From a virus (Duplodnaviria; Heunggongvirae; Uroviricota; Caudoviricetes): a DNA stretch of 4,739 nt. Each line of letters opens with the position of its first letter. The stretch's first letter is position 1. A program made the position numbers and the translations under genes. Below, piece after piece: positions 1-4,739 of the stretch. The stretch lies in IMG/VR virus record IMGVR_UViG_2778261686_000005; one strand, written 5' to 3'. Below the pieces are notes generated by a model. It made no database searches. It saw only the letters and a program-made list of their open reading frames with translations, and was not told the origin of the DNA.

Positions 1-897
1 ATGCTTCCATCGGAAACGATGATCTGGCAGCCTGAGTTCACAGATAAAACACTCTCCAGGAAACCCGGGGCGGTTCACCTCCATGCTGATCCAAATAGTT
101 ACTTTAGTGTTCAAGAGAAGCAGCAAGGGCAGAGCATTGCACAGCAGAACGCAGATACATCTGCATATAATGCTCAGGTTAATGCGGAACAGGGTAATCG
201 GCGTCTCGATATGGAGCAGTTCAAAGTCCTATCCGATAACCAACTACGCACGAGAGAAATGGTTCTGAAAGCACGACTTGGACGTGCTCAAAATGACATC
301 GAGAGAGACAAGCTCAATGCTGAACTGAGCAAGGTACAGCAGGCGAAAGTGGAGAAGATGAACGATAAAATTAATACTGTTACAGGTAACATCGACTCCT
401 TGAACTCTGCGCTTGAAGTGGGTCATGAACTGGCGGGAATTGTAGGGAAACATCCTTCGGCCGTTACCCGCTCGCAGAACTATAACCCCCTGACGCTGGG
501 GTTTGGATTCCTTCCTGATGTAGCAGAAGACACACGAAGCCTACGCGCCAAAGCTGATGAATACAACCTAAAGGTTATTCTGCCTAGCCTCAAAGGGACT
601 TTTGGCTCTAACCCAACCGAAGGGGAAAGGGCTGCCCTTATGCAATCTCAAAATGGCATTAAGTCAGCAACCAGCAATGAGGCATTTTTGCGAGAGTTGA
701 ATAAAGCGCAGGACGTAATTATTCGAATGCAGAAACGACAGATTGCCGGGCTCGGTATTCCTGTAACCAAATCAAAGGACGAAGAAACTGATACCAAAAT
801 GCTGTTGCAGGATCCTTCACTGGTTAAGGATTATGTGACCGCACATGGCTATCTGCCGGAAAGTTACTATCAGGCAAAACTTAAGGGATGGCAATGA
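1..897 (+). CDS. Phage internal virion / ejection (DNA-transfer) protein, C-terminal portion; probably 5'-truncated by the window edge
   Basis: The frame is open from base 1 to TGA at 895-897 (298 codons) with coding-like composition. It contains a charged helical, coiled-coil-like stretch (LKARLGRAQNDIERDKLNAELSKVQQAKVEKMNDKINTVTGNIDSL). Its stop overlaps the start of the next gene. The ATG at 1-3 is probably internal, with the true start upstream of the window. The product is inferred only from its position immediately upstream of the SLT-domain protein (the gp15/gp20-like position in podovirus ejection-protein operons); I see no catalytic motif. Confidence 0.7.
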   Translation: MLPSETMIWQPEFTDKTLSRKPGAVHLHADPNSYFSVQEKQQGQSIAQQNADTSAYNAQVNAEQGNRRLDMEQFKVLSDNQLRTREMVLKARLGRAQNDIERDKLNAELSKVQQAKVEKMNDKINTVTGNIDSLNSALEVGHELAGIVGKHPSAVTRSQNYNPLTLGFGFLPDVAEDTRSLRAKADEYNLKVILPSLKGTFGSNPTEGERAALMQSQNGIKSATSNEAFLRELNKAQDVIIRMQKRQIAGLGIPVTKSKDEETDTKMLLQDPSLVKDYVTAHGYLPESYYQAKLKGWQ

Positions 898-3614
898 TGG
901 CACAACTGACAGAAAAACAGAAAGCCTATTCCCGTCATCTCGATGAAAAATATGGTTTCCCATCAGGGACGATGGAAACATTAGTTGGCAATGAATCTAG
1001 TGGTAACGGAAGTGCCGAGTCACCGAAAGGAGCTAGAGGATTTGCTCAACTGATGCCCTCAGTAATGAGTGATGCTGGTTATCGTGGAACTGATCCGCGC
1101 TCACTGCCATTTGAAAAGCAAATGGATATCGCAGCAAACCATCTCAATAAAGGAATGAAGCGATTTGGTGATATAGGTATGGCATTGGCTGGGTATAATT
1201 CTGGCTATGCTCGTATTAATGCCGTCAGAAACGGTAAATCTACACTGCCAGATGAAACGGCTAATTACGTAAGTAAATTTGCAGATGCCGGAATAATCCC
1301 TGATGACAGTGAAATCTTGCAGTTTGCACAAACCAGTCAACATCGCAATCTTCAGCAGCCTGACTACTCGGAGCTGGATAAAGAAATCTCTCAGGTGGGA
1401 GATATTTCTGCATGGGAAGCAAAACGTCAGCAATTTAAGAACATAGAAGCAGGACTACCAACAGCCAGTTCATGGGAGCAGAAAAGAGCTCAGTTTCTCG
1501 CCGATGAAAATGCCGGGGAACCGCAGCAGCAAGTAGCCAAGTCTAACCTTAATCCTGAGATGGAATATCTTTCGCCAGGACTGAAAGCTGCGCCAGAGCA
1601 GATGGCCAGAGGGATTGCTAATATACCGTTTGATGTAATGGACGCAGGCGTGGGGGTAGTCAATGCGGCGCAATCAGCCGGAGCATGGGCAGCTCAGAAG
1701 CTTGGTGTGGGTGATGGCACATACACGCCCATATCACCTGTCTTTCGCCCAGTAGACCAACCTACAGATCCATACGCGCAGGCTGGTGAGCAGCTAGCAC
1801 CTTACCTTATTACAGGATTAGGCGCAGGAAAGGCAGCTACCGCAGCTTCTTCAGTTGCCAACGCTCCACGTGCTGAACGTGCGGCCACAAAGGTGGCTAG
1901 TATGTTGGCAGAAAACCTGCCAGGTACATTGGTGAACGCCCAAAAGAACGGGCAGATCAGCCCAGAAGACCTAGCAAAAGAGACAGGTATTGGCCTAGCA
2001 GGATCGCTAGGAGCACGCGCTTTAATAAAGAGCGGACAGACAGCCAGTGACGTAATGCGAGATGTATTGCGGAGTAATACAAATCAATCAGGCCATGTGT
2101 TAGGGGCAGCAAATACTCTGGAAACCGCCAATGATGTATCGAAAGCAGCGCGTTCTGCCGTAGGCCGAGAGCATATCGCATCGCAGGCATCAAACGTCAG
2201 AGATGATGTCGCTAAGGCGGCGAAAATCACTGGTATTAATATCAACACCCTGACGCCTGGAATGCGCTCAGGTAGTCGTGGAATTGCCCAAGCAGAAGGT
2301 GTTCTGGCATCAACTCCTGGGAATGTTCAGGATGCTCACCTTACGGCCTTCAATGAAATATCCTCAAAGTTGAATAAGCAGTTGTCTGATTTCGGTGCTG
2401 AGTCTGGAAGCGCATCAGAAAAAAGCGCAGCAATTAAAGAGCGCATCATCGCGAGCCTCAGTGATATGAAAACAGCAGAGAATATGGCATGGGCAGAACT
2501 GCGAAGCACGATGCCACGCGAAAGGATGAAAATGAGTAATGGGATGGCTGTCGTCCAAGCAGAAAAAGCAGCCAATGTTCCACTCAGCCCGGAGATGAAA
2601 CAGTTTCAGGCTGCCAACAACCAAGGTGGCGGCATAACCTTCGACGGGATGAAGGCATGGCGTGCTAAGTTTGCTGATGCTGAACAAGCAAACACCCGGG
2701 CAGGTAAGGCCAATGCCGCCCGGATTGCCGGAGAAATGCGCAGAGCTATCACTGATGACATGCGCATCATGGCTGAAAAAGGAAACTTCCTCACAGAATG
2801 GCAGAAAGCTAACGATCTCTCTAAAAGTTACATTATCGCCAAACAAAATGCCGAATCTGTTTTTGGTCGAGATCTCGCATCAGACGCTATGGTAAGAAAA
2901 GGTGCCGATACGCTTAAGGCATCCGCAAATACTGGAACGGGAGCTTTTCACCGCCTTATCTCCGCGCTGCCGGAAGCAGAACGCCAACCAGCAATAGCAT
3001 CTATTCTTCAGCATGCTGTGGCGCAGGGAGAGAAGGGAGGAATCGGTGAAGAGTCTGGTATCCAGTATTTTGCCAAGCTCATGACCCAGCAGAATGTAAA
3101 CGCCATCAGTCGTCATGCGCCAGATCTCGGTAGAATGATGAAAGAGTTCGGTGTACTCGCTAAAGCCAGCACCAGACCGCAGCGATACGTAGAGCGCACG
3201 GGAAGAACAACTGAGGCTCTCAAAACGCTCGATTCAGGCCTTCCAAAGATCGTCGGTGTGATTATGAACGGAGTTCAACAGTCAGGTGCGATCGCTGGAG
3301 GCTTTGGCGGTGGTGTAATTGGTTCGATTAGTGGTTTGGTTGCTGGTGGCGCACTGAGAAATACTGTGGCTAAGATTGGGGCGACAAGAAGTGGTCGATA
3401 TGCGATAGAGAAAGCCGTTCAGGAAGCTACAAAAGCAGTGCGCGCAGGGGCATCACCAGCAGCGATCGCCGCAGCAGAGAAACGATTTTCGGCCAATAAA
3501 ATTGCCATGAAAGCAATTCGTGATGCCGTTGGGGCTGAAGAATTCGTGAAACTGACAAGGGCCGGGATTGTAGCTACCCTCAGTGGCATGAAAGATGTTA
3601 GCGAATGGGAATAG
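888..3614 (+). CDS. Phage internal virion / DNA-injection protein with N-terminal lytic transglycosylase (SLT) domain
   Basis: 908-codon ORF ending at TAG 3612-3614. The N-terminus carries a family-1 lytic transglycosylase signature: a Glu-Ser pair (E36-S37, nt 993-998) in VGNESSGNGSAESPKGARGFAQLMPS, followed by ALAGYNSGYARI (the A-Y-N-x-G motif, Y103-N104 at nt 1194-1199). The body is Ala/Gln/Glu-rich and probably helical. Gly-rich hydrophobic segments occur mid-protein (PYLITGLGAGKAATAAS, GIGLAGSLGARALI) and near the C-terminus. Start is ambiguous: the SD-like AAGGG at 883-887 abuts ATG 888 but is well spaced for ATG 894 or 897, so the true start is more likely 894 or 897. Confidence 0.88.
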   Translation: MAMMAQLTEKQKAYSRHLDEKYGFPSGTMETLVGNESSGNGSAESPKGARGFAQLMPSVMSDAGYRGTDPRSLPFEKQMDIAANHLNKGMKRFGDIGMALAGYNSGYARINAVRNGKSTLPDETANYVSKFADAGIIPDDSEILQFAQTSQHRNLQQPDYSELDKEISQVGDISAWEAKRQQFKNIEAGLPTASSWEQKRAQFLADENAGEPQQQVAKSNLNPEMEYLSPGLKAAPEQMARGIANIPFDVMDAGVGVVNAAQSAGAWAAQKLGVGDGTYTPISPVFRPVDQPTDPYAQAGEQLAPYLITGLGAGKAATAASSVANAPRAERAATKVASMLAENLPGTLVNAQKNGQISPEDLAKETGIGLAGSLGARALIKSGQTASDVMRDVLRSNTNQSGHVLGAANTLETANDVSKAARSAVGREHIASQASNVRDDVAKAAKITGININTLTPGMRSGSRGIAQAEGVLASTPGNVQDAHLTAFNEISSKLNKQLSDFGAESGSASEKSAAIKERIIASLSDMKTAENMAWAELRSTMPRERMKMSNGMAVVQAEKAANVPLSPEMKQFQAANNQGGGITFDGMKAWRAKFADAEQANTRAGKANAARIAGEMRRAITDDMRIMAEKGNFLTEWQKANDLSKSYIIAKQNAESVFGRDLASDAMVRKGADTLKASANTGTGAFHRLISALPEAERQPAIASILQHAVAQGEKGGIGEESGIQYFAKLMTQQNVNAISRHAPDLGRMMKEFGVLAKASTRPQRYVERTGRTTEALKTLDSGLPKIVGVIMNGVQQSGAIAGGFGGGVIGSISGLVAGGALRNTVAKIGATRSGRYAIEKAVQEATKAVRAGASPAAIAAAEKRFSANKIAMKAIRDAVGAEEFVKLTRAGIVATLSGMKDVSEWE
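960..1262 (+). other. Lytic transglycosylase (SLT, family 1-like) catalytic domain within the 888..3614 CDS (approximate boundaries)
   Basis: Motif order E-S ... G-A-x-G-F-A-Q-L-M ... A-G-Y-N-S-G matches the conserved order of family-1 LT motifs (catalytic Glu-Ser, a G-L-M-Q-like block, A-Y-N-x-G). Boundaries were estimated by eye, not from an alignment. Confidence 0.7.
3249..3356 (+). other. Glycine-zipper-like hydrophobic segment (putative membrane-insertion region) near the C-terminus of the SLT-domain protein
   Basis: Residues ~788-823 read IVGVIMNGVQQSGAIAGGFGGGVIGSISGLVAGGAL. This is a long uncharged stretch with repeated small-x-x-x-small spacing, typical of membrane-inserting or channel-forming helices. 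Confidence 0.5.
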
Positions 3615-3764: not shown

Positions 3765-3815
3765 ATGATTAAAAATCTTCTTTTAATATTATCCCTGTCA
3801 TTATTGGCTGGATGC
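3765..3815 (+). other. Type II (lipoprotein) signal peptide with lipobox LAGC
   Basis: Lys3 supplies the positive n-region, followed by a hydrophobic h-region (LLLILSLSLL) and the lipobox L14-A15-G16-C17. Confidence 0.8.
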
Positions 3816-4463
3816 GTACAAAAACCGTTAGTAACGGTCAATGCTTTATCCTCCGGGCAATCTGTCGGTAAGAAGTTCTTGATCATCCCCGCAAGCCAAG
3901 AACTTTGGAACACCAAACAGATTGAATACACTCAAATAGCTACGGTAGTAGCCGCCAGTTTATCAAGCCAAGGATATATACAAGTTAAAGATGAAAAATT
4001 GGCTGACCAGGTAATTCTCTTGAACTTTTTGAGAAGCGGGGCCATTTCAAATACTCGTAATGTAACCATCCCAATATACGGGCAAACTGGTGTGAGCTCA
4101 GCAACAACGTACGGAAACTCGAACACCACGTTCAATAGTTATGGTGGTGGCTACGGTACAGCTAATACCACTGGAACGGCAACAACAGTTTATACGCCTA
4201 CTTATGGAATTACTGGCGCGTATAACACAACTGTGACGGACACGTTCTACGGCGCAGGGGTGATACTCCAGTCGTTTGATGCCAAGGCTTATCTCAATAA
4301 TAGGCAGATTAATATGTTATGGAAAGTTGGTAGCTCAGTCGTCTCGCAACAGTCTGATGGAATTGCTGATTACAAAGGGTTGGCGAGAATAGCCGCTAGC
4401 TATGCCGGGAAAAATACAGAAGGTGATATAACTTTTAATGTTGACCCTAAAGCACCAAATTAA
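3765..4463 (+). CDS. Lipoprotein of unknown function (probably outer-membrane), phage accessory/moron gene; candidate superinfection-exclusion or defence factor
   Basis: 232-codon ORF with a good SD. The N-terminus MIKNLLLILSLSLLAGC is a signal peptide ending in a lipobox (L-A-G-C, Cys17 at nt 3813-3815). Residue +2 of the mature protein is Val, not Asp, which under E. coli Lol sorting rules predicts outer-membrane localisation. The gene has lower GC and AT-rich codon choice (ATA, TTA, AAA) compared with the upstream genes. A GC-rich hairpin follows the stop. I do not recognise a characterised family. Confidence 0.85.
   Translation: MIKNLLLILSLSLLAGCVQKPLVTVNALSSGQSVGKKFLIIPASQELWNTKQIEYTQIATVVAASLSSQGYIQVKDEKLADQVILLNFLRSGAISNTRNVTIPIYGQTGVSSATTYGNSNTTFNSYGGGYGTANTTGTATTVYTPTYGITGAYNTTVTDTFYGAGVILQSFDAKAYLNNRQINMLWKVGSSVVSQQSDGIADYKGLARIAASYAGKNTEGDITFNVDPKAPN
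4077..4259 (+). repeat. Low-complexity Thr/Gly/Tyr/Asn/Ser-rich segment inside the lipoprotein CDS (protein-level quasi-repeats, not a DNA tandem repeat)
   Basis: Residues ~105-165 read YGQTGVSSATTYGNSNTTFNSYGGGYGTANTTGTATTVYTPTYGITGAYNTTVTDTFYGAG. By manual count roughly 30% are Thr, with recurring T-x-Y-G / Y-G-x-T units and no charged residues except one Asp. The flanking sequence has ordinary composition. Confidence 0.6.
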
Positions 4464-4486: not shown

Positions 4487-4739
4487 ATTCATGCCCCTAT
4501 TATTCATGAATCGCTTTTTCTGGAAGGTATGCGACAAACGTTAAGTGACATTGCCTACACATTCGGGGCGGGATTTCAAATCCGCTCCCAGTTGATGGGG
4601 CCGTTACAGTACGCGCATATCCGCTTTATGTGAAACAGGAAGATTTTTCTGATATCACTGCCTGGATTTGCCCCTATATTTCCAGACACCTGTTATCACT
4701 TAACCCATTACTGGCCTGCTGCCGCAGATATTCCCGTGG

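Follow-up and report, generated by a model that had tools for sequence, protein, structure and literature searches.

We report an uncharged, glycine-rich segment near the C-terminus of a phage DNA ejection protein, encoded in a 4,739-nucleotide stretch of viral DNA (record IMGVR_UViG_2778261686_000005 of IMG/VR, Caudoviricetes; this whole stretch is the window below). The gene, at window positions 888..3614 on the + strand, encodes a 908-amino-acid fusion of an SLT lytic-transglycosylase domain with a 'DNA transfer', or ejection, protein of the P22 gp16 family, HK620/CUS-3 subtype. The segment occupies amino acids 788-823 (window 3249..3356, +) and carries an unbroken ladder of six glycines with a period of four residues. 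The family membership of the protein, the motif, its conservation and the selection acting on it, and the mapping of published escape sites beside it are established here. We suggest, in a judgement that is about evenly poised, that this segment is the membrane-inserting element of HK620-type gp16 and acts as an oligomeric glycine-zipper helix.

An ejection protein with a glycine ladder

Translation of window 3249-3356 (+) gives exactly IVGVIMNGVQQSGAIAGGFGGGVIGSISGLVAGGAL. This is the sole run of at least 20 residues without D, E, K, R or H in the 908-residue protein. Glycine makes up 12 of its 36 residues (33%, vs 9.7% in the whole protein), and the protein's top Kyte-Doolittle window of 19 residues (1.55, starting at amino acid 801) lies within it. 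An earlier note, made from the letters of this DNA alone, had described an uncharged Gly/Ala/Ile/Val-rich segment of about 36 residues with repeated GxxxG spacing. Translation and composition agree with that description, and the spacing is stricter than the note had stated: G800, G804, G808, G812, G816 and G820 form five GxxxG steps in a row (window 3285..3347, +), inside a proposed helix of 25 residues (amino acids 799-823), and the glycine-zipper sequence motif, (G,A,S)xxxGxxxG or GxxxGxxx(G,S,T), is present. Two shorter Gly-rich segments in mid-protein, also listed in that note, are found at about amino acids 303-325 and 366-381, in the most conserved N-proximal block.

Such a pattern is rarely reached by chance. 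Among 20,000 composition-preserving shuffles of the whole protein, an uncharged run of at least 36 residues arose in 306 (1.5%) and a six-step ladder in nine (0.045%), and when the 36-mer alone was shuffled the six-step ladder appeared in 114 of 20,000 (0.6%). Tandem Repeats Finder (TRF) reported no DNA tandem repeat at the segment, Rfam gave no match to it, and no open reading frame (ORF) of at least 40 amino acids overlaps it on the other strand; NCBIfam and PADLOC returned no glycine-zipper or defence family. A 12-nucleotide slippage repeat was considered as the origin of the ladder at the DNA level and rejected, as TRF was blank and the glycine codons vary. The periodicity resides in the protein, not in the DNA.

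The earlier note's label of 'injection protein' is upheld by profile searches. In PHROGs, the protein matches phrog_770, 'DNA transfer protein' (1.8e-120), with amino acids 189-864 covering positions 55-665 of the 668-position profile, and in Pfam the sole match of the whole protein is PF01464 (SLT, 1.1e-12). P0001, the representative of its cluster, matches the searched amino acids 189-908 at 100% identity and carries both PF26808 (Phage_P22_gp16) and PF01464, and database relatives carry PF26808 both with and without SLT. In a 12-sequence alignment (A1), identity of the protein to HK620 gp16 is 49%, against 22-24% to the gp16 proteins of Sf6 and P22, and its final 309 amino acids share 54-57% identity with gp16 of CUS-3, epsilon34, SEN22, HK620 and Sodalis phiSG1. 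Only 75 relatives came out of an exhaustive HMMER scan that covered 1.84 billion representative proteins. Based on these PHROGs and Pfam matches and on the identity to HK620-type gp16 proteins, we conclude at the level of sequence that the protein is an HK620/CUS-3-subtype gp16 with an added N-terminal transglycosylase. Its gene also occupies the place of a gp16-type gene, as the last of a gp14-gp7-gp20-gp16 module of internal proteins: a gp20-like ORF lies directly 5' and overlaps its start, and intact relatives of this locus and a Serratia prophage have the order DUF2824 (gp14), P22_gp7, Inj_translocase (gp20), SLT+gp16.

Comparison of homologues, a check that the earlier note had named, shows that the ladder is strongly conserved. 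In 91 distinct HK620-type C-terminal sequences, which underlie all conservation counts given here, G800, G804, G808, G812 and G816 are invariant and G820 is present in 84, with free exchange among A, V, I, L, T, S, M and F at the positions between them. Amino acids 795-823 contain zero charged residues except for D809 in four of the 91, position 824 is K or R in all, and the length of the segment ranges from 36 to 38 residues. Every HK620-type relative has the segment. Most of the distant full-length relatives (20-30% identity) have an uncharged stretch rich in Gly, Ala, Val, Ser and Thr, 18-35 amino acids long and about 80-120 residues from the C-terminus, without the strict ladder. Judged from the alignment, the pattern in the HK620-type sequences fits a packed apolar helix, not a loose linker.

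The gene was further compared with a copy from an island in Citrobacter, at a synonymous divergence (dS) of about 1. The gene as a whole has a ratio of nonsynonymous to synonymous divergence (dN/dS) of 0.07 and the segment one of 0.04, and relatives use different synonymous codons for the ladder glycines. Therefore, we conclude that selection keeps the ladder at the protein level. We also considered the segment as a hot-spot of arms-race divergence. Compared with the 85%-identical Citrobacter copy it has not diverged beyond the rest of the protein (dN 0.053 vs 0.074), and against a Serratia phage copy its non-glycine positions have changed about twice as fast as the rest (dN 0.67 vs 0.33), a pattern that is suggestive, not decisive, and this candidate was set aside.

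Proposed insertion into the inner membrane and its alternatives

Membrane insertion of the segment would agree with what is known of the family. In HK620-type gp16 proteins, hydrophobicity peaks at the segment. The gp16 family has been placed at or in the inner membrane, as a component of the conduit for DNA (PMC10883804, PMC8954989); P22 gp16 is membrane-associated and required for passage across the inner membrane (PMC10883804), and putative C-terminal transmembrane (TM) helices have been proposed in all gp16-like homologues, including those of CUS-3 and HK620 (PMC8954989). The abstract of a 2026 in situ preprint (Yu et al., PMC13622523) describes the P22 channel as reaching into the cytoplasm and the gp16 family as a component of the inner-membrane conduit; the preprint names SieA three times, and 'glycine' and 'transmembrane helices' zero times. 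Because C-terminal putative TM helices have already been published for gp16-like proteins, the general claim of a membrane helix is not new. What is new is the sharper description of the motif, as we found no description of the glycine ladder itself in the literature. The net charge of the 15 residues on each side of the segment is +1 upstream and +4 downstream. By the positive-inside rule, these flank charges suit an N-terminus in the periplasm and a C-terminus in the cytoplasm, and this would leave the SLT domain in the periplasm, as needed.

A number of observations weigh against a membrane helix. The Kyte-Doolittle value of 1.55 (<1.6) and the summed Hessa energy of +3.9 kcal/mol are borderline and fall under the usual cut-offs for a monomeric TM helix. 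The N-terminal channel-forming glycine zipper of VacA, in what we take to be its sequence, gives values close to these (Kyte-Doolittle 1.84, Hessa +3.2). AlphaFold2 (AF2) was run on the full-length protein (64-row alignment) and on the last 208 amino acids (48-row alignment), and both runs model amino acids 784-822 as coil or short helices, with no stable helix and a predicted local distance difference test score (pLDDT) of 25-45; model confidence this low is no evidence for or against a helix. Sequence searches of the PDB with the protein, with P22 gp16 and with a 12-sequence family profile found no relevant structure and none covering the segment, and hmmscan of Pfam-A (E up to 10) with the 62-residue segment plus flanks and with the last 208 amino acids found no family, including Gly-zipper_Omp, Gly-zipper_OmpA, Gly-zipper_YMGG and Rick_17kDa_Anti. 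At the aligned position the gp16 proteins of P22 and Sf6 are charged and far less hydrophobic, their top hydrophobic windows lie elsewhere, and a hydrophobic C-terminal window is absent from both. According to Perez 2009, as cited in PMC10883804, P22 gp16 can associate with membranes in vitro without its C-terminal 134 residues (amino acids 476-609). For gp16 of the helper phage Kapi1 (Kapi1_058, 24% identical), the DeepTMHMM annotation in GenBank shows no TM helix. The changes that permit escape from SieA flank the segment, none being inside it, and were found in the P22 subtype, which is without the zipper. Finally, the gene 20 partner is cut by an insertion sequence (IS) in the window, and this copy of the module is probably non-functional in a virion. 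The earlier note had proposed that the protein inserts into a membrane to form a channel; the conservation pattern, the flank charges and the family literature speak for this proposal, and the borderline hydropathy, the coil modelled by AF2 and the P22 data speak against it.

The P22 data also suit a different arrangement, which we consider unlikely: the ladder could be a packing zipper in the water-soluble part of the machine, never entering the bilayer. Within the periplasmic tube wall, or in the state inside the virion, it would join helices of gp16 to each other or to the C-terminal end of gp20, and membrane contact would be made through the conserved, hydrophobic N-proximal block at about amino acids 237-325. 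GxxxG ladders are known to pack soluble helices too, the hydrophobicity of the segment is borderline, and the most hydrophobic windows of P22 gp16 are in its N-proximal block. Moreover, membrane association of P22 gp16 in vitro maps to amino acids 1-475 (as quoted in PMC10883804), gp16 and gp20 must match, and SieA escape needs both to be changed (PMC10883804). However, the total exclusion of charge and strong polarity from about 29 positions across 91 sequences, with a basic residue always next in line, would be unusual for an exposed tube wall. The segment is also where these proteins are most hydrophobic, and AF2 leaves the segment unpacked against well-modelled neighbouring domains.

The very low confidence and coil of amino acids 784-822 in two independent AF2 runs would be expected of a flexible Gly-rich hinge between the central helical and the C-terminal domain, with no defined structure, that lets the protein unfold, thread through the portal and tail, and refold. 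Ejection proteins do traverse a narrow channel and then refold (PMC8954989), and the roughly twofold faster change of the non-glycine positions relative to the Serratia phage copy is also in keeping with a hinge. Linkers, however, tolerate polar and charged residues and changes in length, whereas here a register of five glycines is fixed within 36-38 residues that lack charges, and the ladder is unlikely even at the local composition (114/20,000). We therefore regard a hinge as unlikely.

Another reading takes up the borderline energetics of a full span. The segment may act like a fusion peptide, entering the outer leaflet of the inner membrane at an oblique angle; local destabilisation of the membrane would then let the conduit open, and a stable spanning helix would not form. 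Its uncharged, weakly hydrophobic composition of Gly, Ala, Ile, Val and Phe resembles that of viral fusion peptides. We think this very unlikely, as a ladder of 21 residues with a positive downstream flank fits a full span, and the channel of P22 is reported to extend into the cytoplasm (PMC13622523, abstract). A beta-hairpin pore stem around the central GGG was also considered, and rejected on inspection, as polar and apolar residues do not alternate in the sequence or in its relatives.

From the motif, its conservation and its flanks we infer helix formation, oligomeric packing, membrane spanning and topology, and propose the following course for a membrane-inserting glycine zipper. In the capsid, and while passing through the tail, the segment would be unstructured or shielded. 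After ejection, the N-terminal SLT domain would cleave peptidoglycan, and the central helical domain (about amino acids 410-770) would join the periplasmic tube of gp20. Residues 799-823 or so of several gp16 copies would then form helices, packed side by side through the period-four ladder, and the resulting bundle or ring would span the cytoplasmic membrane. Its N-terminal side would face the periplasm, the basic C-terminal residues, about 85 in number, would reach the cytoplasm, and the assembly would anchor or line the final stage of the conduit for DNA. The periplasmic face of the membrane would be the place of the conserved TG...P stretch immediately upstream of the segment. Weak hydrophobicity would allow one polypeptide to be soluble in the virion and membrane-embedded once oligomerised, a duality that is also found in glycine-zipper pore formers and SAR-type domains.

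A virion contains about a dozen copies of gp16, which presumably form a channel. The concept of transmembrane glycine zippers in homo-oligomeric channels (e.g. the VacA N-terminus, MscL and MscS) is reportedly due to Kim et al. in 2005; the (G,A,S)xxxGxxxG motif is shared, here with six glycines, and the likeness is an analogy, not membership of a homologous family. The SAR domains of phage endolysins are weakly hydrophobic helices, rich in Gly, Ala and Ser, which can be either membrane-embedded or outside the bilayer. The same property is required of an ejection protein, as it has to be soluble while in the capsid; however, SAR domains are N-terminal, inserted by Sec and leave the membrane, while the segment is close to the C-terminus and would enter from the periplasmic side. 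For the passage of P22-like phage DNA across the cytoplasmic membrane, the five invariant glycines (800-816) provide a precise candidate for a membrane-crossing element in the HK620/CUS-3/epsilon34 subtype that is cheap to mutate. The ladder is, in addition, a clear sequence marker for the sub-typing of gp16.

Sites of escape from SieA

SieA, a protein of the inner membrane, prevents P22-like phages from injecting their DNA (Leavitt et al. 2024, PMC10883804). Escape requires the gp16 changes G532W and P546S plus a C-terminal change in gp20, namely T338I, T341I, T348I or G350D (PMC10883804). T531-G532 of P22 gp16 aligns with T771-G772 of the protein studied here (window 3198..3203, +), and T771 and G772 are among the few columns that are nearly invariant across the family (alignments A1, A2 and A3). 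The next 14 residues are ungapped in A1, so P546 corresponds to P786 (window 3243..3245, +), where 45 of the 91 HK620-type sequences have P and 43 have S. The two positions aligned with escape sites, G772 and P786, are 16 and 2 residues before the segment and, if the segment does span the membrane, would form its periplasmic edge. The coincidence of the TG...P stretch with published escape mutations gives a concrete hypothesis for the site where SieA-type proteins act. The earlier note had seen in the segment a natural target surface for a host- or prophage-encoded exclusion factor; the mapping of escape sites just upstream lends this indirect support, and against it stand the lack of any such site within the segment and the origin of the changes in a subtype without the zipper.

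The glycine segment is one of the most divergent stretches between the gp16 proteins of CUS-3 (L006 1262-3421) and HK620 (L005 4145-6313), and this divergence, read from the sequences, could matter for the different SieA sensitivity of the two phages, a hybrid with CUS-3 gp16 being SieA-sensitive and one with HK620 gp16 partly resistant. It should be noted that BLASTP gives 77% identity between these proteins, while PMC10883804 states 26%; due to this discrepancy, the identity argument of that study was not used to place the SieA determinant.

Domain layout and the satellite island

The SLT domain comprises amino acids 17-119 (window 936..1244, +), as assigned by Pfam (PF01464), AF2 and Foldseek, within an SLT-bearing N-terminal part (amino acids 1-188, window 888-1450) that is joined to the P22-family gp16. 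This fusion also occurs in phage Dewey and in a complete P22-like Serratia prophage (L008), and is thus not peculiar to the locus. AF2 models the SLT domain with pLDDT >90 and the central helical domain (amino acids 410-770) with about 90. In a Foldseek search of the AF2 model against the PDB, the first-ranked match was 7k5c_B (the N-domain of gp16 of the T7 ejectosome, E 0.036), and chain I of the T7 core-protein entries 9jyy and 7eyb was also matched. All matches with a probability of about 1.0 are lytic transglycosylases or T7 gp16 entries and concern the SLT domain only; the others listed have low probability. T7 gp16 resembles the protein in its N-terminal lytic transglycosylase, long helical body and putative TM region near the C-terminus (PMC8954989), but is 1318 amino acids long and has two proposed TM regions. 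Beyond the transglycosylase, neither a sequence match (PDB, with the protein and the family profile) nor a fold match (Foldseek) to T7 gp16 was found.

From about amino acid 190 to its end, the protein is homologous to gp16 of HK620, CUS-3 and epsilon34. The glycine ladder, the TG motif and TRSGRYAIEKA are common to all of them, and the genes occupy the same slot after gp14-gp7-gp20. Unlike the gp16 proteins of HK620, CUS-3, P22 and Sf6, the protein has an extra N-terminal SLT part of about 190 amino acids, and unlike HK620-type phage gp16, this copy is encoded on a phage satellite. P22 gp16 belongs to the same family, sharing the TG motif, C-terminal helices that align and an N-proximal block of 46% identity, but overall identity is 22-24% and its aligned amino acids (about 548-570) are charged, not a glycine zipper.

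The family-wide conserved block (IPFDV...RPVDxPTDPYAQAGE...YLxxGxG), defined by conservation in A1 and identity to P22 gp16, spans amino acids 237-325 (window 1596..1862, +), includes the first of the mid-protein Gly-rich segments and corresponds to amino acids 73-137 of P22 gp16. The top Kyte-Doolittle windows of P22 and Sf6 gp16 are in the first third of each protein, in P22 within this N-proximal block, which may be the membrane- or partner-binding part mapped by the P22 truncation. The most conserved block of all gp16 subtypes (IPFDV...RPVDRPTDPYAQAGE...YLxPGxG) is inside window 1503-2111 (amino acids 206-408), a region of 200 residues that AF2 predicts to be disordered (pLDDT about 25-35). 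Following the glycine segment is a basic C-terminal helical domain (amino acids 824-908, window 3357..3611, +) with the TRSGRYAIEKA motif, delimited by conservation, flank charge and AF2 helices of pLDDT 57-91; K/R824 and R834-S-G-R-Y-A-I are 100% conserved in the HK620-type sequences.

Three + strand ORFs are found in the window (1..897, 888..3614 and 3765..4463). The first corresponds to the 3' part of a gene for an ejection protein like P22 gp20 (Inj_translocase), which in intact islands is a 439-amino-acid 'phage DNA ejection protein' (PF16928). Here it is fused to IS629, an end of which makes up window positions 1-78 or so; window 1-79 matches the right end of the element, homology to intact islands begins at position 76, and the fusion ORF starts at base 1. 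The other end of the window (4663-4739) is an end of an IS3-family element, which we take to be IS2. The gp20-like gene is truncated and the gp16 gene is intact, and since IS629 truncates the partner gene, the ejection module of this genome is, judging by its sequence, probably defunct.

At 99.7-100% identity, the window recurs in 72 complete E. coli genomes, one of them that of strain MP1, where it is inside EcCIMP1. EcCIMP1 is a phage-inducible chromosomal island that is mobilised by the P22-like phage Kapi1 and confers an unexplained superinfection immunity (PMC11773190). Genes for an integrase, regulators and a Toprim/DUF927 primase precede the gp14-, gp7-, gp20- and gp16-like genes of the island, while genes for capsid or coat, portal, terminase and tail are absent from it. 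Intact copies of the ejection module are found at L001 13371-18539 and at L009/L010 7550-12709, and the same island architecture is present in Citrobacter, with 85% protein identity and a dN/dS of 0.07. Beyond a remark on 'DNA transfer' similarity (PMC11773190), a complete ejection module carried by a satellite seems not to have been discussed in the literature, and its maintenance by purifying selection may matter more for the biology of satellites than the zipper does for that of ejection.

We speculate further, in a proposal that we consider decidedly unlikely, that the ladder could form the inner-membrane DNA pore of HK620-type phages, as a ring of about 6-12 single-pass helices, and constitute, together with TG...P, the surface read by SieA-type proteins. 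The satellite would then keep gp14-gp7-gp20-gp16 either to re-equip helper capsids with a different entry apparatus or to interfere with the conduit of a superinfecting helper. If true, interference of the satellite module with the conduit would explain the superinfection immunity of EcCIMP1.

The third ORF (window 3765..4463, +), in a lower-GC stretch 150 bp 3' of gene 16, encodes a lipoprotein-like protein of 232 amino acids with a signal sequence (MIKNLLLILSLSLLAGC), a lipobox (LAGC) and a middle part rich in Gly, Thr, Tyr and Asn. It has no match to a defence family, and DUF4136 (PF13590) is found in distant relatives only. In P22, sieA follows directly after gene 16. As a conjecture that stands apart from the results given here, the lipoprotein-like ORF could be a candidate for the superinfection immunity of the island.

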